Source: Escherichia coli (GTDB taxonomy: Bacteria; Pseudomonadota; Gammaproteobacteria; Enterobacterales; Enterobacteriaceae). From it: a stretch of DNA of 64,000 nt. The notes under the pieces were generated by a model, which was not told where the DNA came from, searched no databases, and worked only from the letters and a program-made list of their open reading frames with translations. This document shows positions 37,345 through 63,535 of this stretch, piece by piece (the stretch's first letter is position 1; the number at the start of each line of letters is the position of its first letter). The translations under genes and the position numbers were made by a program. The DNA is taken from the NCBI RefSeq assembly GCF_003019035.1, contig NZ_CP027448.1. One strand, 5' to 3'.

Positions 37345-37400
37345 AAACTTGTTTTTGCGTGGGGTGTGGTGCTTTTGGTGGTGAGAATCACCAACCTGTT
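37345..37400 (+). other. oriT: oriT nic region (F-type relaxase site)
   Basis: tttgcgtggggtgt|ggtgcttttggtggtgag matches the F-family nic motif as I remember it, with the adjacent inverted repeat ggtggtga/tcaccaacc; lies between traM and gene X. Confidence 0.8.
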
Positions 37401-39492: not shown

Positions 39493-39514
39493 CCTGCTTT
39501 CTCCTCTCTCTGGT

Positions 39515-40142
39515 TTTCAGCCCCCATCATCTTTTGAGTTTCGGGAGCCGCGGTTTTGACGTTTTGCGGGGACCTGCCTTTTGTTCCCTCCGGTATTCAC
39601 CATCACCTTTTTGAGAACCTTCGCCGCAAGGGGCATCACTGCCACGGACGGAAACGACTGTCCGGGGGCAGACCGCAAAAGTTTTTGCCTGCTTTTGAGC
39701 AAAAAGTTTTGCGGGATGTACATTTCACCCCTGGACTGGCGGAGACGGTTGTGGCTGTATCAGCCCCCGGCGACAGGGGCTTAAACAGGTGAATGGCACC
39801 GGACAGAACAACGGGCAGGGACCCGCCGCAACGACGTGAAGCGCGGTTTGCGAAACGGCGTTGCCCCTTACATCCCGGCGGCCTTTTGCCGGGATGCCGG
39901 GAGCGCAGGCCACGGCGCGACAGAGGCGGCGCGACCGGAACGGTCGCTGCAAGCCCGGGGTTTTCACGCATCGGACCGTAGCGACAGCCCGAAACCGCGC
40001 CAGCGGGTTCGGCGGAGACTGGCAGGTGCGCCAGCAGCTGCCTGTCGGAGTCGGGCCTGACGACCGGATGCCGCCAAGCAGCCGGGAGCCGAAGGTGCGC
40101 CCGGCAGATAGGACAACACTGCAGTAGTCAGAATCAGAGCAG
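39515..40142 (-). repeat. Frpo/ssi-like structured repeat, copy 1
   Basis: About 620-bp GC-rich block shared with 44936..45565 and 48265..48880, each directly upstream of a minus-strand gene set. Confidence 0.7.
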
Positions 40143-40413
40143 AAAGAAAAAGAGAATAATCACAGGGAAGGTGATGTGATTTCTGACAGGCCATAACCAG
40201 AGAAGGCGGGGGAAAAGAACGGGCGCCGCAGGCGCGCGTTCATCCCCGTTCCTGAAGGGAAACGACCTTCCTGAAGTCAGGTTGTTCATGCCCGTACAAC
40301 ATCAGCAAGGAGAAAGGGGCTACCGGCGAACCAGCAGCCCCTTTATAAAGGCGCTTCAGTAGTCAGACCAGCATCAGTCCTGAAAAGGCGGGCCTGCGCC
40401 CGCCTCCAGGTTG

Positions 40414-40572
40414 CTACTTACCGGATTCGTAAGCCATGAAAGCCGCCACCTCCCTGTGTCCGTCTCTGTAACGAATCTCGCACAGCGATTTTCGTGTCAG
40501 ATAAGTGAATATCAACAGTGTGAGACACACGATCAACACACACCAGACAAGGGAACTTCGTGGTAGTTTCAT
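40414..40572 (-). CDS. hok: Hok-family membrane toxin
   Basis: Manual minus-strand translation gives [52 protein letters not shown]. Confidence 0.9.
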
Positions 40573-40630
40573 GGCCTTCTTCTCCTTGCGCAAAGCGCGG
40601 TAAGAGGCTATCCTGATGTGGACTAGACAT
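40418..40630 (-). CDS. mok: Mok (modulation of killing) overlapping reading frame
   Basis: 70-aa ORF overlapping hok in another frame, the canonical hok/mok arrangement. Confidence 0.65.
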
Positions 40631-40670
40631 AGGGATGCCTCGTGGTGGTTAATGAAAATTAACTTACTAC
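40600..40670 (+). ncRNA. sok: Sok-like antisense RNA (approximate)
   Basis: Inferred from hok/sok architecture, antisense to the mok start region; boundaries not resolved. Confidence 0.3.
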
Positions 40671-40851
40671 GGGGCTATCTTCTTTCTGCCACACAACACG
40701 GCAACAAACCACCTTCACGTCATGAGGCAGAAAGCCTCAAGCGCCGGGCACATCATAGCCCATATACCTGCACGCTGACCACACTCACTTTCCCTGAAAA
40801 TAATCCGCTCATTCAGACCGTTCACGGGAAATCCGTGTGATTGTTGCCGCA

Positions 40852-41571
40852 TCACGCTGCCTCCCGGAGTTTGTTCGGCACCATCCACCGCTCCATCTCA
40901 CGGACAGCGTGACCGGCCTCTCTTGCTGCAAGACTGGCTTCCGCAATAACCTGCCAGAACGGCATATCCTGCCACTGCCAGCGTTCCATTCCGGCCAGTG
41001 ACGGAAAACGCTCGCCCCACTGCCAGAACAGGGTTTCCAGGTCATGCTCTGCCACCCGGTCACTCCAGCGTGCATGCCAGCTTCCGACTGTTTCCGGCGA
41101 ATGGAATGCCAGTTCGATTTCAGCCTGAGCGACCAGCGCCTGGTACGCACGGGCTTTCTGCTCTGCCTCCCTCGCCTGCTGGCGGCTGTACTTCTGCATG
41201 ACCAGCGCGGATTTATGGCGACTGCGTTCCCTGACACGAAACCGCACCGACGGGAACAAGCGCTCTGCTGCATCACCGGGAAGGGGAAGGAGGCAGACCT
41301 CGCCCTGTGTTTCAATCAGCACATCGATGGCATACAGCCACTGAAGACGGTTGCCGTGCAGTTCTTCTGCGGTCAGGGACGGCATGAAAAATCGCAGGTC
41401 AGACAGCGATATCCTGCGGCTTCCGTTCAGACAGCGGAAAAACGCCCCCGCATACGGATATTCAGCCAGCGTGTTACCCTGATGGCGGCGTTTTTCGGTC
41501 TCCGCCACCGCCCGCCATACGGCCTGTTGCTCTGTGCTGAGGGGAACCAGTGCCTGTGAACGTGCGCTCAT
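40852..41571 (-). CDS. psiA: PsiA
   Basis: 239-aa ORF directly downstream of psiB, as in F-like leading regions. Confidence 0.85.
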
Positions 41572-42005
41572 GCCTGACCTCCTTCCGCCATCAGGATATG
41601 GATGATGTCACTGACGCTGTACCCCTGCGCGTCCAGTGACGCCGCCAGTGCCAGTGAATGGCTGACGGCTTCCGGTGCAAACCGCCGCTGTACCTGAACC
41701 ACCGCAAACGGCTCACCACCGGCATTCACCAGAACCAGCACCCAGACCTGAGAGACATCGCCCGGTGAACATAACGCCAGGTGAAAACGTTCGTGGGCAG
41801 GCGTGAAACGGACCTGGACGGGGAAAAATCCGCCAAACTCGCTGCCGTACTCGCCGTTCATCGTCCAGTTGTCCGGCGCATCCAGCTCCCGCATCACGGC
41901 GTGTGTCAGCTCACGGCGTTCATCACTTCCGGCAGCCCGGATATCTTCATATTCCTGTGTGTTCATGGTCTGTAATACATTCAGGGTCAGTTCAGTTTTC
42001 ATCAC
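41568..42005 (-). CDS. psiB: PsiB (inhibitor of RecA/SOS induction)
   Basis: 145-aa [67 protein letters not shown]..., matching PsiB. Confidence 0.9.
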
Positions 42006-42056
42006 GGTATCTCCCTTGCTGCCGCCCCGTCTCCGGCGGGGCGGTGTGGTTGTTCA

Positions 42057-44015
42057 TCAGGCGGCATCAGCCAGGTTATCGGTGCGTTCAGTGGCATCCG
42101 TCTGTGGGCGTGGTGCACACATCCAGCCAGGCACCCAGCGGTTGTCTTTCATATGGTGCTCTGCATGTTCAGCCGCATCGCCTTTCTTCATCTTCTCCGC
42201 GTCCCGTGCAGCACCGGACAGTCCTGCCTCATTCAGGGCTGCGATAATCTGCGGCTTTTTCAGGTGTCCGAAGAAGTTTGCTTTTGTCGGCTGCCACCAG
42301 TCGCGCATGTGAAAGCCGATGGCGCTTTCCAGCGAATCCAGCGGACTGCGTGACGTGTGACCATACTCACGGGTCTGAACACCGTGGATGCTGCATGCAG
42401 TGCAGAAACTGAGCAGGGACAACAGAACCTCCTGGCTGAGTGACAGGAACGTCGTCATATCCCGTGCCCATCCCTCCGGTAACAGGGCTGCAAGACGGGC
42501 TTTTTCTGCCATCATCGCCATGAATGCGGCACCGTCCTTCCCCGATGGCGCATCGCTGGTCAGCGCATAATGCTCACATTCCAGACGAATTTTTGCGGGA
42601 TTGCTGTACGCCCCGCTACCAAACACATTCAGGCAGAGCGTCCATGCCAGCAGTGCCAGGGATTTGTCCGGCTGTTGCATAAGCGCCGCCTGGACTGCCA
42701 GCGTGCGCTCTGAGGACATTTTCGTCAGCAGTGGCAGACTGATTTCCTCCACGGAGGCTTTCTCCTGCACCTGTTCCGTGTGGTCAGCGTCGTCAGCCAC
42801 ATCATCCTCACTGCGTAACTGCACACCACGCTGGACACATACGTTTCCATAACGCCAGGACACCACCACGCCACTTCCGGCACGCATCTCCGGCGTCCAC
42901 GCCCTGACCTTCGCCATGCAGTCAATCAGCTTCATTTCTGCTTCCAGCAGGTCGGATTCCTCACACTGGTTTTCCAGCGCATCGTAACGTGCCATCAGTT
43001 CGTTCAGGCGTTCTTCTTCTGCCTCCGTCAGCACCGCTTCCGGCTCCGGCAGACTGCGGTATGTTCCGGCATCCTCACGGCACTCACCAACGGCCTCCAT
43101 GCGTCCGGCACACCATCCCCAGCCCTCGGCTTCCCGAAGGTGTTCAGCAACAGCCTGGAGTTTTTCCAGCAGGGCAGCATCGAGCGCAACACAGTCCACA
43201 TAGCCACCCTCGTCGTCGCTGAACAAATCGGTGCGCAGTTCATCTGGCGAGAAGGCATCAGCCCCCACAAAGCGGAATTTAGTGTTCCCCACCACCGCCA
43301 CTTCACTTTCGGTCACCAGACGACGAATGGTCTGTACTCCCGGTTTTCCGCCCCATCCCGACTGACAGGCAGCTTCAAACACCTGCACCTGACGCGCGGT
43401 GTCGTTCTCCAGCGCCAGCGCCTGACAGTGCTCTGTGGTGATGCGGTCTTCTGCCAGCGCATCGAGGATGACAGGCGCAAGGTCTGCCAGTTTCAGCATT
43501 CGCTGAACGTGGCGGGGTGAATAGCCCAGCAAATCACCGATTTGTGCAGGCGTTTTGCCTTCCTGCGCCATTGCACGGAATCCGGCAATCTGTTCGGCAG
43601 GGTGCATATCCCGACGATGACCGTTTTCAGTCATTGATGCGGCAGTCGCCAGTTCCTGCGGAATAACCTTCACGCGGACAGGCCAGTCAGCAGGAAGGAT
43701 GTTGCGCTCTGCCAGCATGTTGAGTGCTGCCAGTCGGCGACCGCCTGCGGCGACACCGTAACGGTCACCTGGCAGGGCATGAACAACCAGATTCTGCAGC
43801 AGGCCGACGCCCTTAATGGACTCTGCCAGTTCGCTGACGGACTCCGCAGAATACGGCACCGTGCGCACATTCAGCGGTGACTTAATCAGCGAGGCCAGCG
43901 GCACGCTCACTTCAGCCGTCTCCGCCAGCAGGGCCGACAGGACTGTTTCCTGCGTTTTTGCAGGTTTACGGCTGGATTTACGCTCCGTTTTTACCTTAGA
44001 CTCTGTAACTGACAT
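42057..44015 (-). CDS. ParB-like nuclease-domain protein of the leading region
   Basis: Large ORF with N-terminal ParB-like region (GLLQNLVVHALPGDRYGVAAGGRRLAA); start set at MSVTESKVK, track ORF starts at 44111. Confidence 0.8.
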   Translation of the reverse strand: MSVTESKVKTERKSSRKPAKTQETVLSALLAETAEVSVPLASLIKSPLNVRTVPYSAESVSELAESIKGVGLLQNLVVHALPGDRYGVAAGGRRLAALNMLAERNILPADWPVRVKVIPQELATAASMTENGHRRDMHPAEQIAGFRAMAQEGKTPAQIGDLLGYSPRHVQRMLKLADLAPVILDALAEDRITTEHCQALALENDTARQVQVFEAACQSGWGGKPGVQTIRRLVTESEVAVVGNTKFRFVGADAFSPDELRTDLFSDDEGGYVDCVALDAALLEKLQAVAEHLREAEGWGWCAGRMEAVGECREDAGTYRSLPEPEAVLTEAEEERLNELMARYDALENQCEESDLLEAEMKLIDCMAKVRAWTPEMRAGSGVVVSWRYGNVCVQRGVQLRSEDDVADDADHTEQVQEKASVEEISLPLLTKMSSERTLAVQAALMQQPDKSLALLAWTLCLNVFGSGAYSNPAKIRLECEHYALTSDAPSGKDGAAFMAMMAEKARLAALLPEGWARDMTTFLSLSQEVLLSLLSFCTACSIHGVQTREYGHTSRSPLDSLESAIGFHMRDWWQPTKANFFGHLKKPQIIAALNEAGLSGAARDAEKMKKGDAAEHAEHHMKDNRWVPGWMCAPRPQTDATERTDNLADAA

Positions 44016-44079
44016 ATATTTCTCCTTTGACCGGGGTGGTTGTATGTCTGCCGGACGTGATCCCCGTCCGGCACCTCTC

Positions 44080-45565
<1,486 letters not shown>

Positions 45566-45667
45566 CAGGAAAAAGAAGAACAGTAGCAGTAGCAGTAGCA
45601 GGAACAACAACATCAGTAACAGACAAATGACAGGCATGAAGAAACAGAAGCCCCCATCAGAACGTCC

Positions 45668-45700
45668 GCGTAATGAAAGGGGCGGCGCGTGAGCGCGGCC
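45668..45700. terminator. GC-rich hairpin downstream of the methyltransferase gene
   Basis: gaaaggggcggcgcgtgagcgcggcccctttc inverted repeat. Confidence 0.4.
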
Positions 45701-45777
45701 CCTTTCAGCGCCACCGGCGCGCGGTCTTTTCCCGGCGCGGGCAGACGGGCATTTATCCTCCCGCCTGCCCGGCGTCT

Positions 45778-46341
45778 TCAGGCACGCAGACGAATAATCA
45801 TCGTCGGGACATCGGTATAAGCAAACGTGCCGCGCGGCAGCTCCTCGCGGACGTCAGAAAACGGTAACAGCTTCTCCTGCTGGCGTGGTCCGTTGAGACA
45901 GACGGCGACCAGCACGCCACCCGGACGCAACAGGGAAAAGGCCCGCAGGATATGCCGGATATCCTGCCCGTGGCTGAACGGCGGATTCATGATAACCCGG
46001 CTGTAATACTGCGCCGGCTGCCATTCCATGAAGTCGCCACACTGAACCCTGACACCGTTAAAATTTTCCCGCAGATACCGGACCAGCCCGCTGTTGATTT
46101 CCACCGCATCACACATGGCCCCCGGCGCGGTATCCCGAATCGCCCGCAGTATGGCCCCGGTGCCGGCAGAGGGTTCCAGAATGTGATCACGGTTGCTGAT
46201 CTCCGCCAGCATCACCAGGCGATCACAGACCGGGGCAGGAGTCACAAAAAGCTGAGATTCAGCCCGGATTTCAGCAACCGGCGCGGCGTTATCCAGCCTT
46301 GCGCGCATCAGCCGGATACGTTCTCTTAACTGACTGTGCAT
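45778..46341 (-). CDS. SAM-dependent methyltransferase (NPPF motif)
   Basis: 187-aa ORF with motif I-like EPSAGTGAI and motif IV NPPF. Confidence 0.75.
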   Translation of the reverse strand: MHSQLRERIRLMRARLDNAAPVAEIRAESQLFVTPAPVCDRLVMLAEISNRDHILEPSAGTGAILRAIRDTAPGAMCDAVEINSGLVRYLRENFNGVRVQCGDFMEWQPAQYYSRVIMNPPFSHGQDIRHILRAFSLLRPGGVLVAVCLNGPRQQEKLLPFSDVREELPRGTFAYTDVPTMIIRLRA

Positions 46342-46388
46342 GTCATTATCTCCGTCATCCCCCGGGGATTTTCCCGGGGGGATATACC

Positions 46389-47750
46389 TTATTTCTGTGG
46401 AATTTCCGTGATTTTCATGTCGGTGATATACACATTCACCAGGCGGAAATTATTGTCCATTGTGCGGCGGTAGCGGTATGCCCCGTGGTCTTCTGCTTCT
46501 GCCACACTGCGCACGGCCTTACAGTCCCGGGGCAGGGCGGCCCACTGTGCCTTTGTCATTTCCCGGAAACCTTCCCCCGGATAGTTGACTACCGGCGGAC
46601 GCTTCGCGGCCTGACTGGCGACGGCAGCCTCTTCTGCCGATGGTGCTTTGTAGTCCGTGATGCGATCGGGCGTCACTTTCATCGTGCCGCTGTACCCGAG
46701 AAAACTGTAATTTGGCGTTGTGACTGAACTCACCACCCCGTTGCTTTTGTTCACACGGATGATGGTCAGCCACTCGCCCCGGCTGAAAACCTGTCCGCCC
46801 GGCTCAAAATCCTGTGTCCGGGTAACCACGCCGCCGCTTTCGTCCAGCATGGCACGCTCATAGATCAGGCGGTTCTGATAGTGGTTAACCCAGCGTTGCT
46901 GACGCTGGATCTGCCGTTCATGACAGCGGATCGCAATTTCGCGGGCCTGCTCCGTGGTGATGATGTCATCATCCAGGGCCGACCATAACGATCGACTTCC
47001 TTCATACTGGCTTTTTTCTGCCGGGCGCGGATACGTATCCAGCGGGAAACAGGCGCTAATATGGTCATGACTGCTGATGAGTTTTGCCATATTCAGATCC
47101 AGCGATTCAGCCCGCCACATCGTCAGATATTTCTGCGACTGTGCGATGGTCTTTTCAGCCTTGCGCAAATCAGCTTCGATTTTTTTGATACGACGCCAGC
47201 GAACGTCCGGACGTTCTTTATACTTCGCGTGAAGCAGTGCCGACCGCGCGCGTTCTTCCCAGTATTCCGCACGTTCAAAGAGCATCACGGCACGTTTCAT
47301 GCCGTTTTCAATACGCTGCGCATCACGACGGGCGCGGCGTTCGCTGTGATGCCCCACAAGAATGGGCTGACCGGGCGGGATCATCGCGGCCAGTCTTTCC
47401 ACTTCATCAAGTGCCTGTGCGGATTCACTGGCCCGCTTTCCGCTGTATCCGGTAAACCGCTCCGCCCGTGCTTCCTGACGTTCAGCGAGCGTGCTGTCTT
47501 CATCCTCAATCTCTCCGGCAAGTGAGAGGAGCACGTCTTCCCGGCCCGGTGTCCAGGCTGGCGCGACAAACAGCGCCTGTTTGGGTGCCCAGCGAAAACC
47601 GGCATCATGCACTTTTTTATACGTCTCCGGGTCGAGGCGTGACGCGGCATACAGGCGCAGTTTGTTGTCATCCGGTGAGTAGGTCGCGCGGTACATCTGC
47701 ACAGGGCTGGCGGCTTCCGGGGCGGTCATGGTGATGGCTGCTAATGTCAT
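46389..47750 (-). CDS. Leading-region protein, DUF3560-like
   Basis: 453-aa ORF in the operon between repeat copy 3 and the methyltransferase; family assignment from memory only. Confidence 0.6.
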   Translation of the reverse strand: MTLAAITMTAPEAASPVQMYRATYSPDDNKLRLYAASRLDPETYKKVHDAGFRWAPKQALFVAPAWTPGREDVLLSLAGEIEDEDSTLAERQEARAERFTGYSGKRASESAQALDEVERLAAMIPPGQPILVGHHSERRARRDAQRIENGMKRAVMLFERAEYWEERARSALLHAKYKERPDVRWRRIKKIEADLRKAEKTIAQSQKYLTMWRAESLDLNMAKLISSHDHISACFPLDTYPRPAEKSQYEGSRSLWSALDDDIITTEQAREIAIRCHERQIQRQQRWVNHYQNRLIYERAMLDESGGVVTRTQDFEPGGQVFSRGEWLTIIRVNKSNGVVSSVTTPNYSFLGYSGTMKVTPDRITDYKAPSAEEAAVASQAAKRPPVVNYPGEGFREMTKAQWAALPRDCKAVRSVAEAEDHGAYRYRRTMDNNFRLVNVYITDMKITEIPQK

Positions 47751-47801
47751 AAAATGTTCTCCTTCCGTCTGTTGCCGCCCCTCGCGGGGCGGCTCACCTC
47801 A

Positions 47802-48032
47802 TCAGTTAAAAGCGCGTTTCAGTTCGAGTGTGCGGAGCACCTGCCCGAAGGCCGTGTTTTTCATGGCGGGGATGTGTACACCACGCCCCCGGTGAAAACT
47901 CCGGGCTATGTGTCGCCCGAAGGCTTTCAGCACGGGGTCAATTTCCGGCGCGGGGATGTCTTCGCGTCTGAAACGGGGATGACGGCGGGGCTTTACAGCC
48001 GCTGCGGAAGGTGAAACAATACTTACCGTCAT
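47802..48032 (-). CDS. Small hypothetical protein (76 aa)
   Basis: First ORF downstream of repeat copy 3, co-oriented with the operon; no family recognised. Confidence 0.4.
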   Translation of the reverse strand: MTVSIVSPSAAAVKPRRHPRFRREDIPAPEIDPVLKAFGRHIARSFHRGRGVHIPAMKNTAFGQVLRTLELKRAFN

Positions 48033-48264
48033 AAATGAAACTCCTTATGACTGTTGAATGGAACCGCAGAAACTGCTCGAACAGTTTTTGCGGTGTGGAT
48101 TAAGCAGGTCCTCCCCGGCCTGCTTTTTTCATATCTGCGTCTGACGTTCTCCGGTGTTTTCCTCCTTCTGTTCCTGCGTTCTCATTACCTGCCAGCCGGA
48201 TGACTGACAGAACAAATAAATGCGTATTGCCGGAGCCTGAAATAAATCCTGATTTTTAAAGAAC

Positions 48265-48880
48265 ATCACCCGTTGAGTTTCGGGAGCCGCGGTTTTGACG
48301 TTTCGCGGGAACCTGCTGCTGTATTCCCTGTGGTATGAACTTCACCCGTTTGAGAACCTTCGCCGCAAGGGGCATCACTGCCACGGCCTGACGCACCTGT
48401 CCTGGGCAGAACGCAAAATTTTTTACCGGGTTTGGGGTAAAAAATTTTGTGGGCTGTTCATTTACCCTGGACAGTCAGTGCGGCAGGTTGTGGCTGTATC
48501 AGCCCCCGGCGACAGGGACTCATACGGGTGTGTGGCACCCGGCAGGCAATGAGCAGGGACCCGCCGCAACGACGGAGAGCGCGTGCGCGAAACGGCGTTG
48601 CCCCTTACATCCCGGCGGCCTTTTGCCGGGATGCCAGGAGCGCAGGCCACGGCGCGACAGAGGCGGCGCGACCGGAACGGTCGCTGCAAGCCAGGGGGTT
48701 TCACGCATCGGACCGTAGCGGCAGCCCGAAACCGCGCCAGCGGGTTCGGCGGAGACTGGCAGGTGCGCCAGCAGCTGCCTGTCGGAGTCGGGCCTGACGA
48801 CCGGATGCCGCCAGGCAGCCGGGAGCCGAAGGTGCGCCCGGCAGACAGAACAACACTGCAGTAGTCAGAATCAGAGCAGC
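48265..48880 (-). repeat. Frpo/ssi-like structured repeat, copy 3
   Basis: Third copy of the repeat; 5' end slightly diverged. Confidence 0.7.
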
Positions 48881-49072
48881 AGATAAAGGAACAACAACAA
48901 CATCAGGAACAGTTCCACAACATAAGAAAGAAACACTCCTGAGTCAGACACATCACAGACGGGAAGGGTAACGGGCGACGCGCCAGCGTGGCCCGCTTCC
49001 CTTCCGGCAGGCGTCAGCCTGCCAGGGGTTTTCGCGCGGGCTGACAGGCGGCCTCCACCGCCTGCCCCTGTA

Positions 49073-49264
49073 TCACCTGTTTCTGCTGCCCTGTAAGATG
49101 TAGTGACCGCCCAGGAAAACCGCCTGCTGATTCGCCACAAAATCGCAGATTTCATCAACAATCTGCGCGGTGGTGAGCGGTTTCTGCCCCATTTCACGAC
49201 GCCGCGCATTAATCACGGCCCTGTAATTACGCAGAATTTCGCGGGTTTCTGTGCTGATATTCAT
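49073..49264 (-). CDS. Small hypothetical protein (63 aa), start overlaps upstream gene
   Basis: Start overlaps the stop of the 140-aa ORF upstream (ATGA); no family recognised. Confidence 0.45.
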   Translation of the reverse strand: MNISTETREILRNYRAVINARRREMGQKPLTTAQIVDEICDFVANQQAVFLGGHYILQGSRNR

Positions 49265-49683
49265 GACATCGTCTCCCCGTCCAGCGCCTGTAACACAACG
49301 TCCATTGCTTCGCGTTCCTCCCTGACGAATGCGTCACCGTCGCCCCCGTTCTCACTCCCGACGGCATACAGGCGCTTCATTTCACTGCCTGCCAGCGCCA
49401 TCACTTTTTCCAGCATCACCGCCGGGACTGTCACATGACGGCTGGCGCGCTTTTCTTCCATCAGTTCACGAACAACGTCGTGAACAACGCTGACATCCGC
49501 ACCATGCTCAAAGGCATCGTCCAGCCGCTGCATGACGGTTTCCAGCTCATCGTCTGCCAGACTCCAGTCCTGAGCTATGTGGCGCACATCCCCACGGGTC
49601 AGCACCACGGCAAAAACGCATTCACTGTCCGGCACGTCTGTATCCAGCACTTCGCGGATAATTTCTTTAACAGTACAGTACAT
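49261..49683 (-). CDS. Leading-region acidic protein, possibly DUF1380-like; paralog of 51390..51824
   Basis: 140-aa ORF MYCTVKEIIREVLDTD...VTVPAVMLEKV... sharing the MY.T N-terminus and VTVPA motif with the 144-aa ORF at 51390..51824. Confidence 0.6.
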   Translation of the reverse strand: MYCTVKEIIREVLDTDVPDSECVFAVVLTRGDVRHIAQDWSLADDELETVMQRLDDAFEHGADVSVVHDVVRELMEEKRASRHVTVPAVMLEKVMALAGSEMKRLYAVGSENGGDGDAFVREEREAMDVVLQALDGETMS

Positions 49684-49729
49684 GTTCTCGTCTCCTTTAC
49701 AGGGGCGGCATTGCCGCCCCGTCCGTTAA

Positions 49730-50155
49730 TCAGTCCAGTGCCGCGTAAATCGCGTTACATTCGGGGTGAAATTCGATGTGGCTCCACAACTGCGCATCGC
49801 GCATCCTGTACAGGTGAGTCAGTCCTGCATCACCGCTGTCGTGGTACAGCCACAACTGACGGTTAATCACAAGGGAAGTCACAATGATGCCTGCGGCATC
49901 GGCGCTGACCGTACGGTCAAACCAGTTTTCACCGTTCACCATGTGGAAACGGTCGCCATCCGGCATCATGTAACCGCCACCGTCCGGCAGGCGGATGAAG
50001 TGCCAGAATCCGCCTTCATATTCCGGCATCATTTTTTTCGCCAGCGCGTACACAGATGCCTCGGCATACAGAAAATCATTGCCAAACAGATACAGCAGAA
50101 AGGAGAGACGGTCGCATTCTTCAACATTCAGAGTGACAGGTTTCGCATACTGCAT
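49730..50155 (-). CDS. Putative antirestriction protein (ArdB/KlcA-like)
   Basis: 141-aa ORF from [41 protein letters not shown]... with GGAGG Shine-Dalgarno; family call from memory, moderate certainty. Confidence 0.55.
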
Positions 50156-50567
50156 GGGATTTCCTCCGTTGTTCACATATTCCGCGACACCGGGCGGTGC
50201 CGTGCCTCCATAAAAGCCGGGCGATAAGGCGGGGATGCACAGGGCGCAAGGGAAGCCGCAGCCTGACGCACACGGCTGACGGGAGTTGGAGGGGGAGACC
50301 GCGAAATCTGAGCGGGTGAACGACCGGAAAATCACGGCAGACGGGAAGGAGGGACCGGGTGACCGCAGCGTTCATTTTACCCTTGCATCCCCGCCAGCCC
50401 GGCTAAGATGGAGGCACGGCACAGCCCGCACACGACACGGTGGCCACATAACTGAAAACCCACAAGGCCATGCCTGCATGGCCGGGTAAAGCGGAGCCGG
50501 CGGCGACTTCCTTTGTGCTCTGTCCGGGGACCGGCAGAAAAAAAAGCGGGGATTTTCCCCGCCATCA

Positions 50568-51344
50568 TCAGCCCCTGATTTTTGCCAGGGCATCCGCCAT
50601 GCTGCGGATTTCGGCCCGGGCTTCCCGGACAACTTCCCGCAGAACACCACGGTCAAACCTCTGGCGGGGCGGTTCATCCGGTATACGCAGCACATCGCAG
50701 GCCAGCCCACTGGACAGGATATGTTCAATACAATCGCTGACCAGATACATTTCCACCGCCGAAAAACGTGCGCCCCGGTTCAGGATGGCATCGAGCACCA
50801 CGGGCAGGTTTTCGTCGTCCTCATCGAGCCAGCAGGGGTGATCGCTTTCCTTCACGACCAGGCGAAAGCGGCGCGTCTGGCGGGTCAGTAACGTCTGACC
50901 AGTGGTGGTCAGCGCCGCCCGGATACGCCGCGTATCTTCTGCCACCCGGCAACTGACACTGCGTACCGCATCGCGCACCGCCGCAAGTACAGCCCTGATT
51001 TCGTCTTCGGTCAGCCATTCACCGGCATACGGAAAAGACACCTGCGTTCCGTCTGCCGGAAGTACCGGCAGCGACTGCCACTGACTGCCGGACAGTACAA
51101 GTTCCTCCCCGGTTCCGGTCAGTTTGTGAATGGCGGAGGCCAGGAGCGGCGGCAGTACGCCGCCGTGACGGTTTATAAGTAACGTCGCCAGCTGGGGCGC
51201 ATCCAGCCGCACGTAAATGCTGATCCAACCCGGATAGTTCGGGTTTCGCTGGTCAACATCAGTCTCTTCCGGCCAGCCCTGCGCCAGCAGCAGGTCGCGG
51301 GCGTGACGACAAATCAGTGCATTCAGCGTTGTGTTTTCGTTCAT
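50568..51344 (-). CDS. Hypothetical leading-region protein (258 aa)
   Basis: Long ORF co-oriented with neighbours; no family recognised. Confidence 0.65.
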
Positions 51345-51389
51345 GATTAATCGTTCTCCCTGTATCGCCGCCCGGAGGCGGCGATAACA

Positions 51390-51824
51390 TCAGTCGTTTT
51401 CGTGTGTGTTGTTTTTCAGCAGGCTGCGGGTCTGATTAACCACCGCCTGACGGCGGGTGACGCATTCCGGGACGGCGAGGCCGTTATCACGGGCGGCCCA
51501 TTCACGCTTCCACAGTGCCTGTTCAGCGGTCTGAATCAGGGACGCCAGCAGTTCAGCAGGGACGGTCACCTGGCGGTTTTCACTCACGTTGCTGATAATC
51601 TCCATCGCCGCACAGGAAGAAATACCGGACTCAGTCCGCTGGTCTTCCGGGATGTCCTCCAGCCGCGCCAGGACGGTCCTGATTTCATGATCGGACAGGG
51701 AAATATCCATTCCGTCAGCGAGGGCCTGAGTTTCTTCCGGGGACCAGATAACCAGCATCAGCGGCGTGTCTCCCGGATACTGCGCTGCCAGCTCCCGGCA
51801 CAGCGTTTCGCATGTTCCGTACAT
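51390..51824 (-). CDS. Leading-region acidic protein, possibly DUF1380-like; paralog of 49261..49683
   Basis: 144-aa ORF MYGTCETLCRELAAQYPGDTPLMLVIW...VTVPAELLASL... Confidence 0.6.
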   Translation of the reverse strand: MYGTCETLCRELAAQYPGDTPLMLVIWSPEETQALADGMDISLSDHEIRTVLARLEDIPEDQRTESGISSCAAMEIISNVSENRQVTVPAELLASLIQTAEQALWKREWAARDNGLAVPECVTRRQAVVNQTRSLLKNNTHEND

Positions 51825-51837
51825 TCTCGTCTCCTTC

Positions 51838-52059
51838 TCAATCTTTGAAGCAGGAATCCAGTTCCAGAATTTCGGTATACGCCTCCATAAACAGGCGATT
51901 GGCGCGATACAGCGTCTGGCGTGTCAGGCGTTCAACAAGCACATCGGAATCAAAGCGACAGCGATGCTCCATATCGTTCAGCCTGGCCCGAAGGTCACAC
52001 ATGGTGTTGGCCACCTCCGCCACGTCGGCGCGAAGTTTTTCGTGTCCGGCATAGTTCAT
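51838..52059 (-). CDS. Small hypothetical protein (73 aa)
   Basis: ORF abutting the methyltransferase stop at 52060; no family recognised. Confidence 0.45.
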   Translation of the reverse strand: MNYAGHEKLRADVAEVANTMCDLRARLNDMEHRCRFDSDVLVERLTRQTLYRANRLFMEAYTEILELDSCFKD

Positions 52060-52743
52060 TTACGCAGCCTCCGGTTCAAACCAGTTATCATTCGCGGCCC
52101 CCTGCTGCATGGCCCGTTGCACGGCGGCCATTCGTTGCTGTCCGGCACGGTGATACTGTTCAAGCAGCTCGATACCGATATACCGGCGTCCGGACTGAAG
52201 GGCGACCACGCAGGTTGAGCCGCTGCCTGCAAACGGGTCCAGCACAATCGCGTTCGGATGTGTGAAGCTCTCAATCAGTGGTTGCAGGCTGGTAACGGGC
52301 TTTTCCGTCGGGTGATGGCGGTTGCCTGAATATTTCCAGCCCAGCACGTCCGGCAGCAGGTTTTGTGGCAGACGTGGACGGCCTTTTGCCAGGATGTAGG
52401 CGCATTCGTGGCGATAGCCCACATATGCGGCCTTCGATGTGTAGTTTTTGGTGAAGACCAGGTGCTCGACCACACTGAATCCCGCATTTTTCCAGGCGGC
52501 CATAAAGCGATCGACGCGGTTCCAGCCATAGAGGCTCACCATCAGCGCGTCTTTTTTCAGCACACGGTACATTTCATTACAGGCCGGTTGCAGCCATTCA
52601 TCGGTTTTATCACCCGCGATGGTACGTCCCTGACGGTCACGAAAACCGACGAGGTACGGCGGGTCAGTCAGCATGAAATCAATGGCGTTATCAGGGATAC
52701 GGGCCATAACATCGATGCAGTTACCGAGGACAAAACGGGACAT
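52060..52743 (-). CDS. Orphan DNA methyltransferase (beta-class N6A/N4C type, DPPY motif)
   Basis: 227-aa ORF with DPPY early and FAGSGST later (motif IV before motif I), YhdJ-like order; no adjacent restriction enzyme gene. Confidence 0.85.
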   Translation of the reverse strand: MSRFVLGNCIDVMARIPDNAIDFMLTDPPYLVGFRDRQGRTIAGDKTDEWLQPACNEMYRVLKKDALMVSLYGWNRVDRFMAAWKNAGFSVVEHLVFTKNYTSKAAYVGYRHECAYILAKGRPRLPQNLLPDVLGWKYSGNRHHPTEKPVTSLQPLIESFTHPNAIVLDPFAGSGSTCVVALQSGRRYIGIELLEQYHRAGQQRMAAVQRAMQQGAANDNWFEPEAA

Positions 52744-53126
52744 AACAACGCTCCTTCTTTCACAGAGGGCACCGGGAGGGCCCCCTGTGGTGCCCGTTCC
52801 CCGCTGCCTGTGGGCTGTTCACCGCGTCCGGTAACTGGTCAGGCCGACCGTGGAATACCGCAGCCGTCGTCTTTTTGACGGCAAGGTTATGCCGCGAAAG
52901 CGGCTTGAAGGGCGTTCATCAGAAAAGGGCGACGGGCTGGCGTACACTGTCACCGACGCCAGCCGGGAGCGGTAAAAGCGACCGTTCCGTGCCCGCCGGA
53001 CGCGGGACACTGACCACAGGCAGCGTTCCTGCCGCGCCGCGTCAGCCGGCGCAGTAAAAAGAGGAGCACGGCGACATCCTTTGTCGGAAAAGAAACGGGC
53101 GGTTGCCCGCCCGTCTCCGTCATACT

Positions 53127-54053
53127 TCATCCGCCATAATGCGCCACATTGTCGACTATCCACGCAGGTCCGGTGACCTCCGGCAGCTCATCGTCATCTG
53201 TCGGGGAAGACCATTCCTGTTCCCCCCACAGAACATCAACAAGCTCTCCACGCTCATATCGCTGCCAGCCACAGAAATTGCAGCCCTGTTCGGCATACCA
53301 GTGCTCCAGCGTGCAGCCGAAACGGCGGCTTAATTCTGCAACAACGTCGCTTTCCGGCTGACACCACGGCGTGTCAAAATCCACCTGAATGAAGTTTTCT
53401 CCCTGACGGCCGATATTCAGGTCATACCCACAAGGCCACTTCACGCCATACCGTTCCGTATACCAGTGATATGCAGAAGGAACACCGTTCAGAACACCAC
53501 CGTTAAAGCCGTTCACTTCAACATCCAGGCGGGTCGGCAGAACCGTCAGCAGGTCAAACGGCATGGTTTTTTCCGGCACTACGTTGTCACACAGACGGTT
53601 CCACCACACCGATACATCCTCGTTACTCCAGAAGCCACACCAGTCACCTCTTTTTGCGGTGAAAAGTGCGGTGATGGTATCCCTGACATCGTCCGGTAAT
53701 CCTTCCCAGCGACGCTGTCCAGTACCGCTCTGCAGCCAGAGTTCATGCAGCATCAGGCAGTTTTGCTCATCCAGCAGTACACCGTCCTGCAGATATGTCA
53801 GCCAGCGGGTGAACGCGATATTCTCCGGCGATACAACGCCACGCCCGGCAGCCGTCAGTCCGGGGCATGGTTCAAACCGCACATCTTCAGTGGTCTGCAG
53901 AAGTCCGGCACTTCCGGCCAGAAACAGCTGAATACCTTCATTTGTGGCGCGGCGATAAAGCGGTGTGACTGCGCCGCTGGCCAGTCGTTTAATCTCAGCG
54001 ATCTGTGCCGGTTCACCAGAAAAATACATACGATTCGAGCACCAGTTTGGCAT
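53127..54053 (-). CDS. Leading-region protein, DUF1281-like
   Basis: ORF with likely start MPNWCSNRMYFSG and GGAG Shine-Dalgarno; track ORF starts at 54098; family assignment from memory only. Confidence 0.6.
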   Translation of the reverse strand: MPNWCSNRMYFSGEPAQIAEIKRLASGAVTPLYRRATNEGIQLFLAGSAGLLQTTEDVRFEPCPGLTAAGRGVVSPENIAFTRWLTYLQDGVLLDEQNCLMLHELWLQSGTGQRRWEGLPDDVRDTITALFTAKRGDWCGFWSNEDVSVWWNRLCDNVVPEKTMPFDLLTVLPTRLDVEVNGFNGGVLNGVPSAYHWYTERYGVKWPCGYDLNIGRQGENFIQVDFDTPWCQPESDVVAELSRRFGCTLEHWYAEQGCNFCGWQRYERGELVDVLWGEQEWSSPTDDDELPEVTGPAWIVDNVAHYGG

Positions 54054-54375
54054 GGGAATTCTCCTCTCACATGCGGCCTCCATCAGGCCGTGCCGCACCT
54101 GTAACCGGGCGACCGCATACGAATGCAGGTGCGGCCCCGAAGCCGCAGCGCGTGGAGGAGGAACGACGAAACGTGACCGGGTGAGGAGGCCGGCGACAGC
54201 GACACACTTGCATCGGATGCAGCCCAGTTAACGTGCCGGCACGGCCTGGGTAACCAGGTATTTTGTCCACAGAACCGTGCACAAAATGCTGTGGATAAGC
54301 TGGACACAGCAGCCCACAGCAGGCATACAGCCACACCCTCAGAGAATTGAACGTTTTTTAGCCGCAACAATGACA

Positions 54376-54423
54376 TTTGACTGTATGTGGATTCAGTTAT
54401 TAGAATGCTGTATATGCATACAG
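54376..54423 (+). promoter_or_regulatory. imp promoter with LexA (SOS) box
   Basis: TTGACT (54376..54381), 18-bp spacer, TAGAAT (54400..54405), then CTGTATATGCATACAG (54408..54423), a perfect CTGT-N8-ACAG box; a half-like box CTGTATGTGGATTCAG lies at 54381..54396. Confidence 0.7.
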
Positions 54424-54446
54424 CAAAAGAAAAGAGAGATGAGAAC

Positions 54447-54695
54447 ATGATCCGCATTGAAATTCTTTTCGACCGCCAGAGCACAAAAAACCTCAAATCA
54501 GGCACACTTCAGGCGCTACAGAATGAAATCGAACAACGACTGAAACCACACTACCCGGAAATCTGGCTGCGTATAGACCAGGGCAGCGCCCCGTCTGTAT
54601 CTGTCACAGGAGCCCGCAACGACAAGGATAAAGAACGTATCCTGTCTCTGCTGGAAGAAATCTGGCAGGACGACAGCTGGCTGCCTGCAGCATGA
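54447..54695 (+). CDS. impC: ImpC (DinI-family SOS regulator)
   Basis: MIRIEILFDRQS...ILSLLEEIWQDDSWLP resembles the DinI C-terminus; first gene of an imp/umu-type operon; track ORF starts earlier at 54387. Confidence 0.75.
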   Translation: MIRIEILFDRQSTKNLKSGTLQALQNEIEQRLKPHYPEIWLRIDQGSAPSVSVTGARNDKDKERILSLLEEIWQDDSWLPAA

Positions 54696-55129
54696 GTACC
54701 GTTTATCACCGTCCGGCTGACCCTTCAGGCGATGACAGTTACGTGCGACCGTTGTTTGCCGATCGTTGCCAGGCCGGTTTTCCTTCGCCTGCCACTGATT
54801 ATGCTGAGCAGGAACTGGATCTGAACAGCTATTGCATCAGCAGACCTGCAGCCACCTTCTTTCTGCGCGCCAGCGGTGAATCGATGAACCAGGCTGACGT
54901 GCAGAATGGTGATCTGCTGGTAGTGGACAGGGCCGAAAAACCACAACACGGGGACATCGTTATCGCTGAGATCGACGGTGAGTTCACCGTCAAACGACTG
55001 CTGTTGCGCCCACGCCCGGCACTGGAGCCGGTTTCAGACAGCCCGGAGTTCCGCACACTGTATCCGGAAAACATCTGTATTTTTGGTGTTGTCACTCACG
55101 TGATACACAGGACGCGGGAGTTACGCTGA
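54692..55129 (+). CDS. impA: ImpA (UmuD-like S24 peptidase-domain protein)
   Basis: 145-aa ORF with LexA/UmuD-type Ser-Lys dyad context (ASGESM ... K) and overlap with impB start. Confidence 0.85.
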   Translation: MSTVYHRPADPSGDDSYVRPLFADRCQAGFPSPATDYAEQELDLNSYCISRPAATFFLRASGESMNQADVQNGDLLVVDRAEKPQHGDIVIAEIDGEFTVKRLLLRPRPALEPVSDSPEFRTLYPENICIFGVVTHVIHRTRELR

Positions 55130-55251
55130 TGTTTACACTGGCTGATATCAACAGTTTCTACGCCTCATGTGAAAAAGTTTTCCGCCCGGACCTTCGCAAC
55201 GAACCGGTCATCGTACTCAGCAATAACGATGGCTGTGTGATCGCACGCAGC
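55126..55251 (+). pseudogene. impB: impB (UmuC-like Y-family polymerase), 5' fragment cut by insertion
   Basis: MFTLADINSFYASCEKVFRPDLRNEPVIVLSNNDGCVIARS matches the UmuC N-terminus, then leaves homology and hits a stop at about 55284. Confidence 0.8.
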
Positions 55252-55301
55252 CCAGATTATGTGGAATTGCAAGTAACGTTGTAGTGCTGATGAGGAAAAT
55301 T

Positions 55302-60274: not shown

Positions 60275-61594
60275 TTACTTTCTCTTATTTCCTGGGGTCG
60301 CGCCCCCAGTGAGCTTATTCAAAAGTTTGTCCACTGCCTGTATATCGTTTTCTACAGCGGCTTGTTCGTCATCAGTCAAAGGGATTTCCTGCATCAGCTT
60401 GAGTAGATTCTGGCGACCTTCCAAGTATTGTGCTTCAGATGAAGATTTTGGCATATAAAATGAGCATTTTGCACATGCCATCCGATGGGGGCATTGCTCA
60501 AAAAAGTCATAAGTACAGAAACCGTGTCCAAGATCATAATAACGCCATGGCTTCCCGGATGCTACCAGCCCTTCAGCTATCGCGTCTTGATCAATGAGAA
60601 CTGAAACCATGCGGCGATTACATTCAAAGTAACCAGCTTTATCCAGTGATCCTGCCAACCTCGTCGGTGTAATTTCGACATAATGTCGGGTAGATTCAGG
60701 TGAAGAATGCCCCAACCATTTCTGTAGCTCAAAAATATCAAGTGGTTCCCTGGCGTTGTAAAGCTGACTGGCTATAGTGGCTCTTGCCCGATGGCTGGTG
60801 ATTTTACCTCTGGCATCCTGCTCAGGTATACCAGCCTTTCTGCATAGCAAAGGGATTAGCGAATTATTAATATAACTACTGTGTACCCGTTTCCCCCTGT
60901 GCATGAACAAAAAACGGACGCTTTCACCTGTTTTAGAATCTTCCTGGAGGGGGTGGGGGTTACGAACAAGTTCCCATTGTTCGATATATTCCCCGATAAT
61001 AGGGTCAACTGGCTTTGTGAATGCCGCGTAAGTCTTGCTAACGGGTACATCTATCAGACAGATACGGGATACATTATTTTCTTCTGGCTGTTGCCAGCGG
61101 ATACACCCACACTGCATACGTAGAATTTCATCACGTCTGAGGCCTCCAAATAACCAGAGAACGCTGAGTGCTCTGACCATCTCCAGTGGATAAAAATAAG
61201 GATATGCAACACAGTTTGGTAAATCCGACTCCTGCAGGTTCTGTCCGGCGTGAAGTAATTTACACCACATATCATCGGCCACAATACGAGGCTCTGGTCC
61301 AACCAGGGAAGTCAAGCTACGCGGTGCCCTGAAAACTCTTTCTGGGCTGAATCGTACAGGTATCCATCCCCATTCCTGCAAGTCATGAAAGAAAGTTCTA
61401 ATATGACCCAACATCCTGGCTCTCGCTGCAGGCATCATCATTTTGCCACGACGGTCACGATACATGCCCCCAGGGGTTGCCCATTCACCAACTTTCATTC
61501 TACAAGCGGCGGTCACCCAGACGATCGCGGTGTCCCGTGTCCAATCAGATGGTGACAGACAGGTTGGATAGCACTCAGCTAACCAGCTGACCAC
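60275..61594 (-). CDS. Tyrosine recombinase (large, with C-terminal Cys/His cluster)
   Basis: 439-aa ORF with GGLRRDE, HRARAT, LGHSSPESTRHY catalytic-type motifs and CPHRMACAKC cluster. Confidence 0.8.
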   Translation of the reverse strand: MVSWLAECYPTCLSPSDWTRDTAIVWVTAACRMKVGEWATPGGMYRDRRGKMMMPAARARMLGHIRTFFHDLQEWGWIPVRFSPERVFRAPRSLTSLVGPEPRIVADDMWCKLLHAGQNLQESDLPNCVAYPYFYPLEMVRALSVLWLFGGLRRDEILRMQCGCIRWQQPEENNVSRICLIDVPVSKTYAAFTKPVDPIIGEYIEQWELVRNPHPLQEDSKTGESVRFLFMHRGKRVHSSYINNSLIPLLCRKAGIPEQDARGKITSHRARATIASQLYNAREPLDIFELQKWLGHSSPESTRHYVEITPTRLAGSLDKAGYFECNRRMVSVLIDQDAIAEGLVASGKPWRYYDLGHGFCTYDFFEQCPHRMACAKCSFYMPKSSSEAQYLEGRQNLLKLMQEIPLTDDEQAAVENDIQAVDKLLNKLTGGATPGNKRK

Positions 61595-62525
61595 ACTTTA
61601 GCAAAACGTACCAACCGGACAAAATAGATGAAGGGCGAAGTACTGAGGTAGCACGCCACCGTTTGCACCATACCAGCCATTTAGTTGGTACATCAGCTGT
61701 TGCATTATATTCGCGGGGAGGACGGCGACGTTGTGTTATTCGGTAATCAACCCCTTCCTCAATAGTCCCTGATGCAGCCAGTATACGCGATAGAGTAGCT
61801 GAGGCTTCCCGGAGGGAATCCGGGCACGTTGCAGCAATCTGTTGCAACGTGGTCACGGTGATATGGTCTAGTTGAGCATCCCTTTGCAGAAGCATTGCCA
61901 TACACATGGCATTTCTGATGCCGTTGTTCCGACTATCACGAGGCACATATCCCAGAACCTGCATCATATTGTCAAGCTGGCTGACGGCAAAATCGGTGCT
62001 CTGTCGGCCAAAAACCTTAAGACAGAGCCGATATTGATAGAATATGCCACAGTGTTCCAGCCGCTCAAACCCACATAGCAACCATGCTAACGCTATAACA
62101 TATTGCCGACAGTTGCCGCTGGCTCCAAACCGTCGACGAAATTCCCCTTCGCTGTTGCAAATAACTTCTAACCACTCTTCTTGTGTCCAGGCCCAGTATG
62201 TTTTCCGGATGCGCTGCATCTCTAGGACTATATCGTGAATAGATGAATTGTAGGGGGCCTTGGCCGCATGCATTTTTGTTAGCGTGTCGCGTAGTGGTAA
62301 AAGAAGGCGGGAAAGCCGTTTTTGTATATCAGGTGACCAGTTTTTACCTCCTTGCTGGAAGTGGTCGACCAATGTATCCAGTGCCGCAAGCTCGCTTTCA
62401 GAGATCTCCGATCGGGTATCCCAAAGTAGGGCAGGAAGACTGAGTGATGTTGTCGGACAAGGCGCTGTATGTTCAGATTGCATCATGGAGAAGGATCCTG
62501 CTGTTGTAGTACAGTAAGGCGGCAA
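61575..62525 (-). CDS. Recombinase-associated ORF (overlaps both flanking recombinase genes)
   Basis: 316-aa ORF overlapping the upstream gene by 43 nt and the downstream gene by 20 nt; no catalytic motifs seen; could be an accessory protein or the frameshifted N-terminal part of the 439-aa recombinase. Confidence 0.5.
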   Translation of the reverse strand: MPPYCTTTAGSFSMMQSEHTAPCPTTSLSLPALLWDTRSEISESELAALDTLVDHFQQGGKNWSPDIQKRLSRLLLPLRDTLTKMHAAKAPYNSSIHDIVLEMQRIRKTYWAWTQEEWLEVICNSEGEFRRRFGASGNCRQYVIALAWLLCGFERLEHCGIFYQYRLCLKVFGRQSTDFAVSQLDNMMQVLGYVPRDSRNNGIRNAMCMAMLLQRDAQLDHITVTTLQQIAATCPDSLREASATLSRILAASGTIEEGVDYRITQRRRPPREYNATADVPTKWLVWCKRWRATSVLRPSSILSGWYVLLKCGQLVS

Positions 62526-63535
62526 GTATGCAAGGATGCGACCGTGTAATTGAAACGACTACTCAGATCACGTGCGCTGAGATGAATATAGAGCAGAGTT
62601 GACTGGATACGACGGTGGCCAGCGAATGCAGCAATTTCGTGGATGTCCCACCCCACGCGTGCCAGTTCTGTCAGACAAAGATGTCGGAATGTGTGGGTGC
62701 TGATGAGTGGAAGATCAGCCTTAATAGCTAAACCGCGAACTACTTTTGACCAAGTCCAGTTGCTAATAGGTTCTGCCCGATTACGCGGAGAGCGTGAGAG
62801 AAACAACGGACCGCGAGATGAGCTTAGCATACGACGTTCAGTGAGCCATGCTGTGTAGAGTTCCCCCGTCACAGGAGAATAGGGCACAACCCGACCAAAG
62901 CGGTTTTTGGTATGCTCAGCGCGCACAGTGAGCAAGCGTTGAGAAGGGTCAATATCTCCGGTAGCTACTGTGCAAAGTTCTTCTCTGCGTAATCCGCAGT
63001 CGTAGGCCAGTGCCAGCATAAAACGAGTACGGATATCAGCTTGTCCGGCTACCTCAAGAAAGCGCAACCACTCCGCATCATCCGGGATCCACGGTAGCCG
63101 CCGCTGCAACGGCACTATACCAGCTTTTCCTTTCCCTCCGTTTTTCCAGACACCTCGTCTGACAGGATTTCTCTCCCGTATCCCCTCCTCACAAAGCCAA
63201 TAGTTGTACAGTCGTACCACCGTCAGCCGGTGGCGGATAGTGGCAGCTGCCAGCTGGCGACCGGTATGCAGGCTGCGGACATAGAGTGCGACCGTATCAC
63301 GTCCAGCGACAGCAGCCGTCAGGGCAACAGAGTGACAGAAAGCGAGCCAGTCATTGACGCCACGGGCATAGGCATCAATGGTGTTTGGAGCACACAGCAG
63401 GTCCTCCTGCAGGCACACCCACCGGCAAGCTGAAGGATCGGCCGACAGAAAAGGCAGCGCATCCAGCAGTTTCTTGTGCACAGCATCCCCCTTTTCGATA
63501 ACAGAATGTGTTGTATGAAATATAGTCAATTCCAA
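62483..63535 (-). CDS. Tyrosine recombinase (XerC/D-like)
   Basis: 350-aa ORF with GLRREE, HTFRH, GHRRIQSTLLYIHL catalytic-type motifs. Confidence 0.85.
   Translation of the reverse strand: MELTIFHTTHSVIEKGDAVHKKLLDALPFLSADPSACRWVCLQEDLLCAPNTIDAYARGVNDWLAFCHSVALTAAVAGRDTVALYVRSLHTGRQLAAATIRHRLTVVRLYNYWLCEEGIRERNPVRRGVWKNGGKGKAGIVPLQRRLPWIPDDAEWLRFLEVAGQADIRTRFMLALAYDCGLRREELCTVATGDIDPSQRLLTVRAEHTKNRFGRVVPYSPVTGELYTAWLTERRMLSSSRGPLFLSRSPRNRAEPISNWTWSKVVRGLAIKADLPLISTHTFRHLCLTELARVGWDIHEIAAFAGHRRIQSTLLYIHLSARDLSSRFNYTVASLHTCRLTVLQQQDPSP

Follow-up and report, generated by a model that had tools for sequence, protein, structure and literature searches.

What does the block of genes at positions 45778–54053 of an Escherichia coli plasmid do for that plasmid as it enters a new host, and which of its uncharacterised genes deserve experiment? 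The block was studied within a stretch of 64,000 nucleotides (contig NZ_CP027448.1; hereafter the window). An initial annotation had read it as a leading-region anti-defence island, made up of two orphan methyltransferases, a putative antirestriction gene and a series of co-transcribed genes of no assigned function. Our analysis arrives at much the same general answer: with a probability of about 0.88, the block is a conserved IncF/IncI-type leading-region establishment island. The genes named in the annotation were all found where it placed them, on the minus strand and with their motifs exact. Two of them bear most directly on the answer: a methyltransferase with a DPPY motif that is 92% identical to M.EcoGIX of pESBL-EA11 (208 of 227 residues, without gaps), and a KlcA/ArdB protein that is 93.6% identical to YfgB of the F plasmid.

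The idea of such islands, and each of the gene families found here, is already published: leading-region anti-defence islands were defined by Samuel et al. 2024 (Nature; PMC11541004), and the present locus adds no new principle. What is new is a revision of the operon structure, an annotated ORF that is probably no gene, a split enzyme composed of a DUF3560 protein and a methyltransferase, and a sharper list of candidates. Whether resistance plasmids become established in new hosts depends in part on leading-region genes, which are thus possible targets for blocking their spread. The practical value of the locus lies in showing which uncharacterised open reading frames (ORFs) are worth testing (YchA, two DUF1380 proteins and the DUF3560–methyltransferase pair) and which of those annotated are probably not genes but promoter hairpins.

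Leading-region position and relatives of the island

The F-type nick motif GGGTGT/GGTGCTTT (slash at the nick) has a single exact match at the origin of transfer (oriT), on the plus strand at 37362–37375, which places the nick at ∼37367. Because the motif is on the plus strand, this is the transferred strand, entering 5′ to 3′ toward higher coordinates. The block lies on the leading side, 8.4–16.7 kb from the nick and at about ORF positions 11–22, in agreement with the published medians. Its content amounts to thirteen plausible genes and one doubtful ORF of 103 amino acids (aa); all are encoded on the minus strand, and each therefore has the transferred strand as its template. Downstream of the methyltransferase gene that closes the block (the product has an NPPF motif) follow ssb, a DUF905 gene, the ParB-like herB/yfjB, psiB and psiA. 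Genes of known anti-restriction or SOS-inhibition function are thus present within the block (KlcA) and beside it (PsiB, PsiA and SSB).

At 90–99% identity, the region has matches in over 5000 plasmid records (Escherichia, Klebsiella, Salmonella and Shigella), of which 3083 hold 80% or more of the 8.3 kb. Compared with F or another IncF plasmid, the ratio of nonsynonymous to synonymous substitution rates (dN/dS) ranges from 0.04 to 0.32 per gene, wherever synonymous divergence is measurable. The small ORFs are therefore real genes, and no diversifying selection was seen in any gene for which the ratio could be obtained (0.32 or less in each).

Set beside the islands of Samuel et al., the locus shows no substantive difference and is one instance of the commonest enterobacterial type: the oriT-adjacent position, transferred-strand orientation, orphan methyltransferases, KlcA, SSB/PsiB and Frpo promoters are common to both. 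Supplementary Table 1 of that study lists, as leading-region enriched and encoded on the transferred strand, families 7 and 14 (DUF1380), 8 (methylase K07319), 9 (KlcAHS), 10 (YchA), 11 (YfcA), 26 (methylase K07317), 27 (DUF1281) and 28 (DUF3560) (PMC11541004). Two individual plasmids are closer comparisons. The IncI1 plasmid pESBL-EA11 (pESBL) has the same order (impCAB, DUF1281, 103-aa ORF, methyltransferase, 73-aa protein, DUF1380, 258-aa protein, KlcA, DUF1380, 63-aa ORF, ssb), and both hairpin regions described below are ∼96% identical to those here; it differs in placing ardA further on, while the F-type oriT and tra genes belong to the present plasmid. F (yfdA to yfgB, with Frpo1/2 and ssp2) shares 93.9–94.8% nucleotide identity over 48947–54336 and 40121–45386, including the same hairpin upstream of klcA (ssp2), but has two Frpo copies against three here and a truncated DUF1281 gene.

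F also lacks 45387–48272, and with it a cassette comprising a 76-aa ORF, the DUF3560 gene, the NPPF methyltransferase gene and one repeat copy; pESBL is likewise without these three genes. Since Frpo copies B and C bound the cassette, its presence or absence is explicable by recombination between repeats, and since it is absent from both model plasmids, published expression and transfer experiments do not cover it. The 76-aa ORF is identical in amino-acid sequence (100%) to its counterpart in NZ_CP147573, with two synonymous changes.

Predicted hairpin promoters and units of transcription

The island does not form a single operon: at least three units headed by predicted hairpin promoters can be distinguished, in addition to DUF1281. 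The suggestion that its genes are co-transcribed thus stands within units and fails for the block as a whole, where a strong terminator-like site follows the gene for the 258-aa protein YchA. Three classes of promoter active on single-stranded DNA (ssDNA) have been described, class 1 (Frpo/ssi), class 2 (klcA, ardA) and class 3 (M.EcoGIX), and recipient-specific RNA sequencing found the M.EcoGIX and klcA operons induced early in pESBL and F (PMC12672017).

A repeat of ∼640 nucleotides (nt), 90–96% identical to the two copies of F, occurs three times, at 39513–40150, 44936–45573 and 48252–48887. When ssDNA folds were compared with shuffled controls, z scores of −8.6 and −7.6 were obtained for 48252–48590 and 44936–45270, which lie within the last two copies, and of −6.2 and −5.4 for 52744–53140 and 50156–50567. 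The sequences of the hairpins upstream of klcA and of the DPPY methyltransferase gene are conserved at ∼96% in F, in pESBL and in a second IncF plasmid, all of which form the same hairpins. A search of 9.6 kb of coding strand for sigma-70 consensus sites found none. On homology and folding, the Frpo repeats are predicted to be single-strand promoters. Details of the individual elements are given in Table 1.

Table 1. Genes and regulatory elements of the island and its surroundings (window coordinates)
Feature	Coordinates	Strand	Evidence or remark
TraM	36661–37044		adjoins nick motif; oriT surroundings homologous to F oriT region
psiB	41568–42005		adjoins island
ssb	44375–44914		adjoins island
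Frpo/ssi-type class 1 repeat, copy B	44936–45573	+	upstream of ssb; ∼300-nt imperfect hairpin ∼44971–45269
NPPF methyltransferase, 187 aa, gamma-order N6-adenine type	45778–46341	minus	motif I then NPPF
DUF3560 protein (YdbA), 453 aa	46389–47750	minus	PF12083 1.1e-36, residues 89–206 only
76-aa basic ORF	47802–48032	minus	RefSeq annotated; opens the unit that follows Frpo copy C
Frpo/ssi-type class 1 repeat, copy C	48252–48887	+	hairpin ∼48286–48586; predicted promoter of 76-aa ORF–DUF3560–methyltransferase unit
63-aa ORF	49073–49264	minus	dN/dS 0.07 vs F; last gene of klcA unit
DUF1380 protein, 140 aa, YubJ/YcjA type	49261–49683	minus	acidic, isoelectric point 4.4; PF07128 3.1e-4; RefSeq annotation
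KlcA/ArdB anti-restriction protein (F YfgB/YubI orthologue)	49730–50155	minus	PF03230 8e-27
klcA-upstream hairpin, class 2/ssp2 homologue	50192–50427	+ (transferred)	
Terminator-like stem and T-run	50545–50563	minus	right after 258-aa gene; splits methyltransferase unit from klcA unit
YchA/YubG/NgrC, 258 aa	50568–51344	minus	last gene of M.EcoGIX-type unit
DUF1380 protein, 144 aa, YubF/YcgB type	51390–51824	minus	acidic; PF07128 4.8e-52; PHROG 9024
YubE-family protein, 73 aa	51838–52059	minus	PHROG 4830, 1e-36; PF27407 on syntenic 73-aa genes
DPPY methyltransferase, 227 aa, beta-class adenine, M.EcoGIX orthologue	52060–52743	minus	NCBIfam PRK13699
Hairpin directly upstream of DPPY methyltransferase gene	52802–53025	+	probable class 3 ssDNA promoter
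Annotated 103-aa ORF (YfbA)	52819–53130	minus	RefSeq 'hypothetical protein'; overlaps class 3 hairpin
DUF1281/Api92-like protein (YubB/YfdA)	53127–54053	minus	PF06924 2.8e-49; PF18406 (DUF1281_C) 4.1e-15

Together these elements suggest how the island may work. The plus strand would enter 5′ to 3′ from ∼37367 and serve as template for all island genes; its long imperfect hairpins would function as single-strand promoters before second-strand synthesis, giving four units. From the class 3 hairpin at ∼52.8–53.0 kb would be expressed the M.EcoGIX-type methyltransferase, YubE, a DUF1380 protein and YchA, up to the terminator; from the class 2/ssp2 hairpin at ∼50.19–50.43 kb, KlcA/ArdB, the other DUF1380 protein and the 63-aa ORF; from Frpo copy C, the 76-aa ORF, DUF3560 and the NPPF methyltransferase; and from Frpo copy B, ssb, DUF905, herB, psiB and psiA. 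The DPPY methyltransferase would place N6-methyladenine (m6A) promiscuously on the entering strand and so blunt type II restriction, KlcA would relieve type I restriction in vivo, and the DUF3560 and NPPF proteins, acting as one split methyltransferase, would probably add a second protective adenine methylation.

Within the class 1 repeat, the gene-proximal hairpin half is 67–95% alike among the three copies; the distal half, GC-rich and ∼300 nt long, is 97% alike and hence better conserved than the promoter hairpin, and about its last 190 nt are missing from F. Two 68-aa ORFs on the minus strand inside Frpo hairpins (39517–39723 and 44940–45146) bear the NCBI name 'single-stranded DNA-binding protein', probably an annotation artefact from the nearby ssb. 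Their assignment to family 1 of Samuel et al. (YdaB/YdfB) was considered and, in view of that NCBI name, rejected.

Methyltransferases, KlcA and the uncharacterised proteins

The DPPY methyltransferase scores 485.8 bits against NCBIfam PRK13699 (cut-off 244). Its motifs stand in beta-class order, with DPPY at residues 27–30 and FAGSG at 171–175, and its relatives in the PDB are CcrM and RsrI. M.EcoGIX itself is a promiscuous m6A methyltransferase (SAY) active on single strands only, which methylates the entering strand and shields pESBL from restriction (PMC7736820). Among the neighbouring genes no restriction enzyme or nuclease family turned up in scans of NCBIfam, PHROG and Pfam; both methyltransferases of the island are therefore orphans, as the initial annotation had proposed.

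Its ArdB/KlcA-like candidate proved equally sound. In addition to the shared Pfam family, the protein gives a full-length sequence match to KlcA/ArdB proteins of solved structure (PDB 2KMG, the KlcA structure, E 4.3e-17 over residues 6–142; also 2WJ9). In F, loss of the yfgB ssDNA promoter ssp2 lowers transfer 5-fold into EcoKI recipients and 36-fold into EcoGIII recipients; ssp2 is also a replication roadblock, and its deletion reduces transfer into several wild E. coli recipients (preprint, 10.64898/2026.01.09.698686). By analogy with this work on F ssp2/yfgB, and with the literature on the family, the KlcA protein encoded here would be expected to relieve type I restriction in vivo. The 63-aa ORF that ends the klcA unit is kept after Antirestrict genes in distant loci.

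The DUF3560 and NPPF methyltransferase genes are separate here, 47 nt apart. A scan of viral contigs with the DUF3560 alignment returned 67 loci of 33–63% identity and GC content 0.38–0.68. Of the 61 loci that extend far enough downstream, all but two have a homologue of the NPPF methyltransferase next on the same strand, and in 48 of these 59 a single reading frame of ∼580–990 codons spans both, with DUF3560 N-terminal and the methyltransferase C-terminal. No other leading-region genes stood beside the pair among the distant loci scanned. The pairing is also consistent with the table of Samuel et al., in which the two families are of near-equal size and stand at adjacent positions, 11 (1957 members) and 12 (1913) (PMC11541004). 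On these sequence comparisons the two genes are a divided version of an enzyme that is widespread in fused form, the NPPF protein being the predicted catalytic half and the DUF3560 protein a putative non-catalytic partner. Two E. coli 'fusions' of 99% identity (P0005 and P0006) were discarded as evidence, both being singleton in-frame deletions.

The NPPF methyltransferase carries LEPSAGTG at residues 55–62 and NPPF at 119–122. It ends at residue 187, whereas M.TaqI has 421 aa, of which the catalytic domain alone aligns; a C-terminal target-recognition domain is thus absent. Matches of 1e-15 to 1e-33 to internal domains link it to PHROG families of proteins 1259–3925 aa long. In giant phage proteins, such as a 3782-aa PLxRFG-domain protein of Pseudomonas phage Baskent_P6, the module is 30–40% identical to the NPPF methyltransferase; here, by contrast, it stands free as a 187-aa protein paired with DUF3560. 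The DUF3560 domain by itself gave seven weak matches in phage genomes, a sequence search of the PDB returned none, and its AlphaFold2 model is poor.

YchA has no Pfam match and no sequence match in the PDB. Its family is small: among 1.84 billion proteins it accounts for 178 representative clusters, all with a length of ∼260 aa. Although the predicted model is confident (predicted local distance difference test 88, predicted template modelling score 0.82), a fold search of AFDB50 matched its own family alone and no analogue. The YchA alignment is too diverse for a locus scan, and the contexts of exact proteins were used instead: in five contexts, with homologues 25–44% identical, the gene that follows is KlcA/ArdB or ArdA, mostly after a gap of ∼400 nt, and the genes upstream vary. 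This position suggests a link to anti-restriction and implies no function. In one distant plasmid (L076 4799–6789), two YchA-like genes in tandem (267 and 262 aa) separate DUF1380 from KlcA.

The two DUF1380 proteins also gave no match in a sequence search of the PDB, and literature searches found no functional study of DUF3560 or DUF1380. The DUF1281 protein, in contrast, resembles Api92 (PDB 2IJR, E 1.5e-51). Any role for YchA, the DUF1380 proteins, YubE or DUF1281 is one that we infer.

Alternative readings and flanking features

What was observed directly is the gene content, its orientation and homology, the hairpins and, in distant loci, the fusion of DUF3560 with the methyltransferase; several further points weigh against the reading built upon them. 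A strict −35/−10 scan of the 3′ arms of the hairpins found no good hexamer pair, and the identity of the promoters therefore rests on homology and folding. The hairpin at 52802–53025 is presumed to be the published class 3 hairpin, and M.EcoGIX activity, early operon induction and the ssp2 effect, shown for near-identical orthologues elsewhere, would hold on this plasmid by analogy. DUF1281 is cut to 168 aa in F, which can therefore dispense with it in transfer between K-12 strains. In one locus (L079 6647–8017) a full-length DUF3560 gene precedes psiB, and no methyltransferase gene was called there. Sequence and structure comparisons found no likeness between the uncharacterised island proteins and known anti-defence proteins, and HerB/YfjB, the product of a neighbouring leading gene, reprograms host transcription and does not block defence (PMC13370423). 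These last two points, together with dN/dS values of 0.07–0.32 that give the uncharacterised genes no sign of diversifying selection, favour the view that YchA, both DUF1380 proteins, YubE, the 63-aa and 76-aa ORFs and DUF1281 are factors for establishment or host manipulation (replication priming, cost compensation or regulation, in the manner of HerB) rather than inhibitors of defence. We take this to be a serious alternative, if not the one we would choose: the same genes are grouped in transcription units with functions proven against restriction, YchA directly precedes ArdA or KlcA in each distant context examined, and the DUF1380 proteins are strongly acidic (net charges −11 and −17), like inhibitors that mimic DNA.

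Two narrower alternatives concern single genes. The 103-aa ORF is annotated in RefSeq on many plasmids, and its frame is open here over 103 codons, as expected of a genuine gene (yfbA). Yet the frame is shifted by single-nucleotide indels between this plasmid, F and pESBL; in F it has 70 codons, with 72% amino-acid against 96% nucleotide identity and a dN/dS of 0.56. The product has no PHROG family match and an isoelectric point of 11.7, and its sequence folds into the long conserved hairpin with the z score of −6.2. That it encodes a protein is very improbable; it is probably a promoter hairpin, not a gene, and because its region is read as the class 3 hairpin, DUF1281 is placed upstream of the M.EcoGIX-type unit. 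The other alternative, which we judge improbable though a shade less so, is that the NPPF methyltransferase acts not on plasmid DNA but on RNA or protein, like Erm and KsgA on rRNA or like PrmC. Its top NCBIfam matches are Erm (8.9e-9), KsgA and PrmC, Pfam places it as a generic class I S-adenosylmethionine-dependent methyltransferase with matches that include MTS and RrnaAD, it has no target-recognition domain, and the rRNA methylases match it about as weakly as M.TaqI, a further point against our reading. The NCBIfam scores, however, fall far under the family cut-offs (35 against 212 bits), and the closest solved relative is the catalytic domain of M.TaqI, a DNA methylase (E 1.2e-6, residues 33–135). 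In PHROG it has much stronger matches (1e-25 to 1e-33), both to the giant-phage-protein modules and to families annotated as DNA methyltransferase; the gene has the leading-region position and transferred-strand orientation, and its KEGG group in Samuel et al. is adenine DNA methylase (PMC11541004). DNA is taken here as its putative substrate.

A wider proposal may be built on the split enzyme and YchA jointly. In it, the DUF3560–NPPF pair, as the split form of a single-chain enzyme widespread on phage- and plasmid-like contigs of varied GC content, would be a second entry-phase adenine methylase, of low specificity and unlike M.EcoGIX, with DUF3560 giving DNA or replisome targeting; and YchA would be a new anti-restriction accessory or inhibitor. 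We offer this combination tentatively, and think it rather unlikely to hold in all its parts.

Some further features of the region and its borders may be recorded. In several otherwise identical plasmids (matches H1, H11 and H13–H15) a group II intron (ltrA) interrupts the 8-kb region. Next to DUF1281, on the plus strand at 54387–55284, lie impC (DinI-like), impA (UmuD-like) and a cut-off impB, as in the IncI1 plasmid pESBL; F carries sopAB where the imp genes stand here, and the far end of the leading region is therefore more IncI1-like than F-like. Just past the island is a complete 6A-MBL anti-phage system (55302–58714, minus strand, with 60275–63535), including a cap2_3 E1/JAB protein (NF058523, 2e-198) and an MBL-fold protein (NF058524, 1.4e-127), with up to three tyrosine-recombinase-like ORFs beside it. 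The defence genes and these ORFs together are inserted into the umuC-like impB, which breaks off at 55284, and a defence system thus directly adjoins the anti-defence island.

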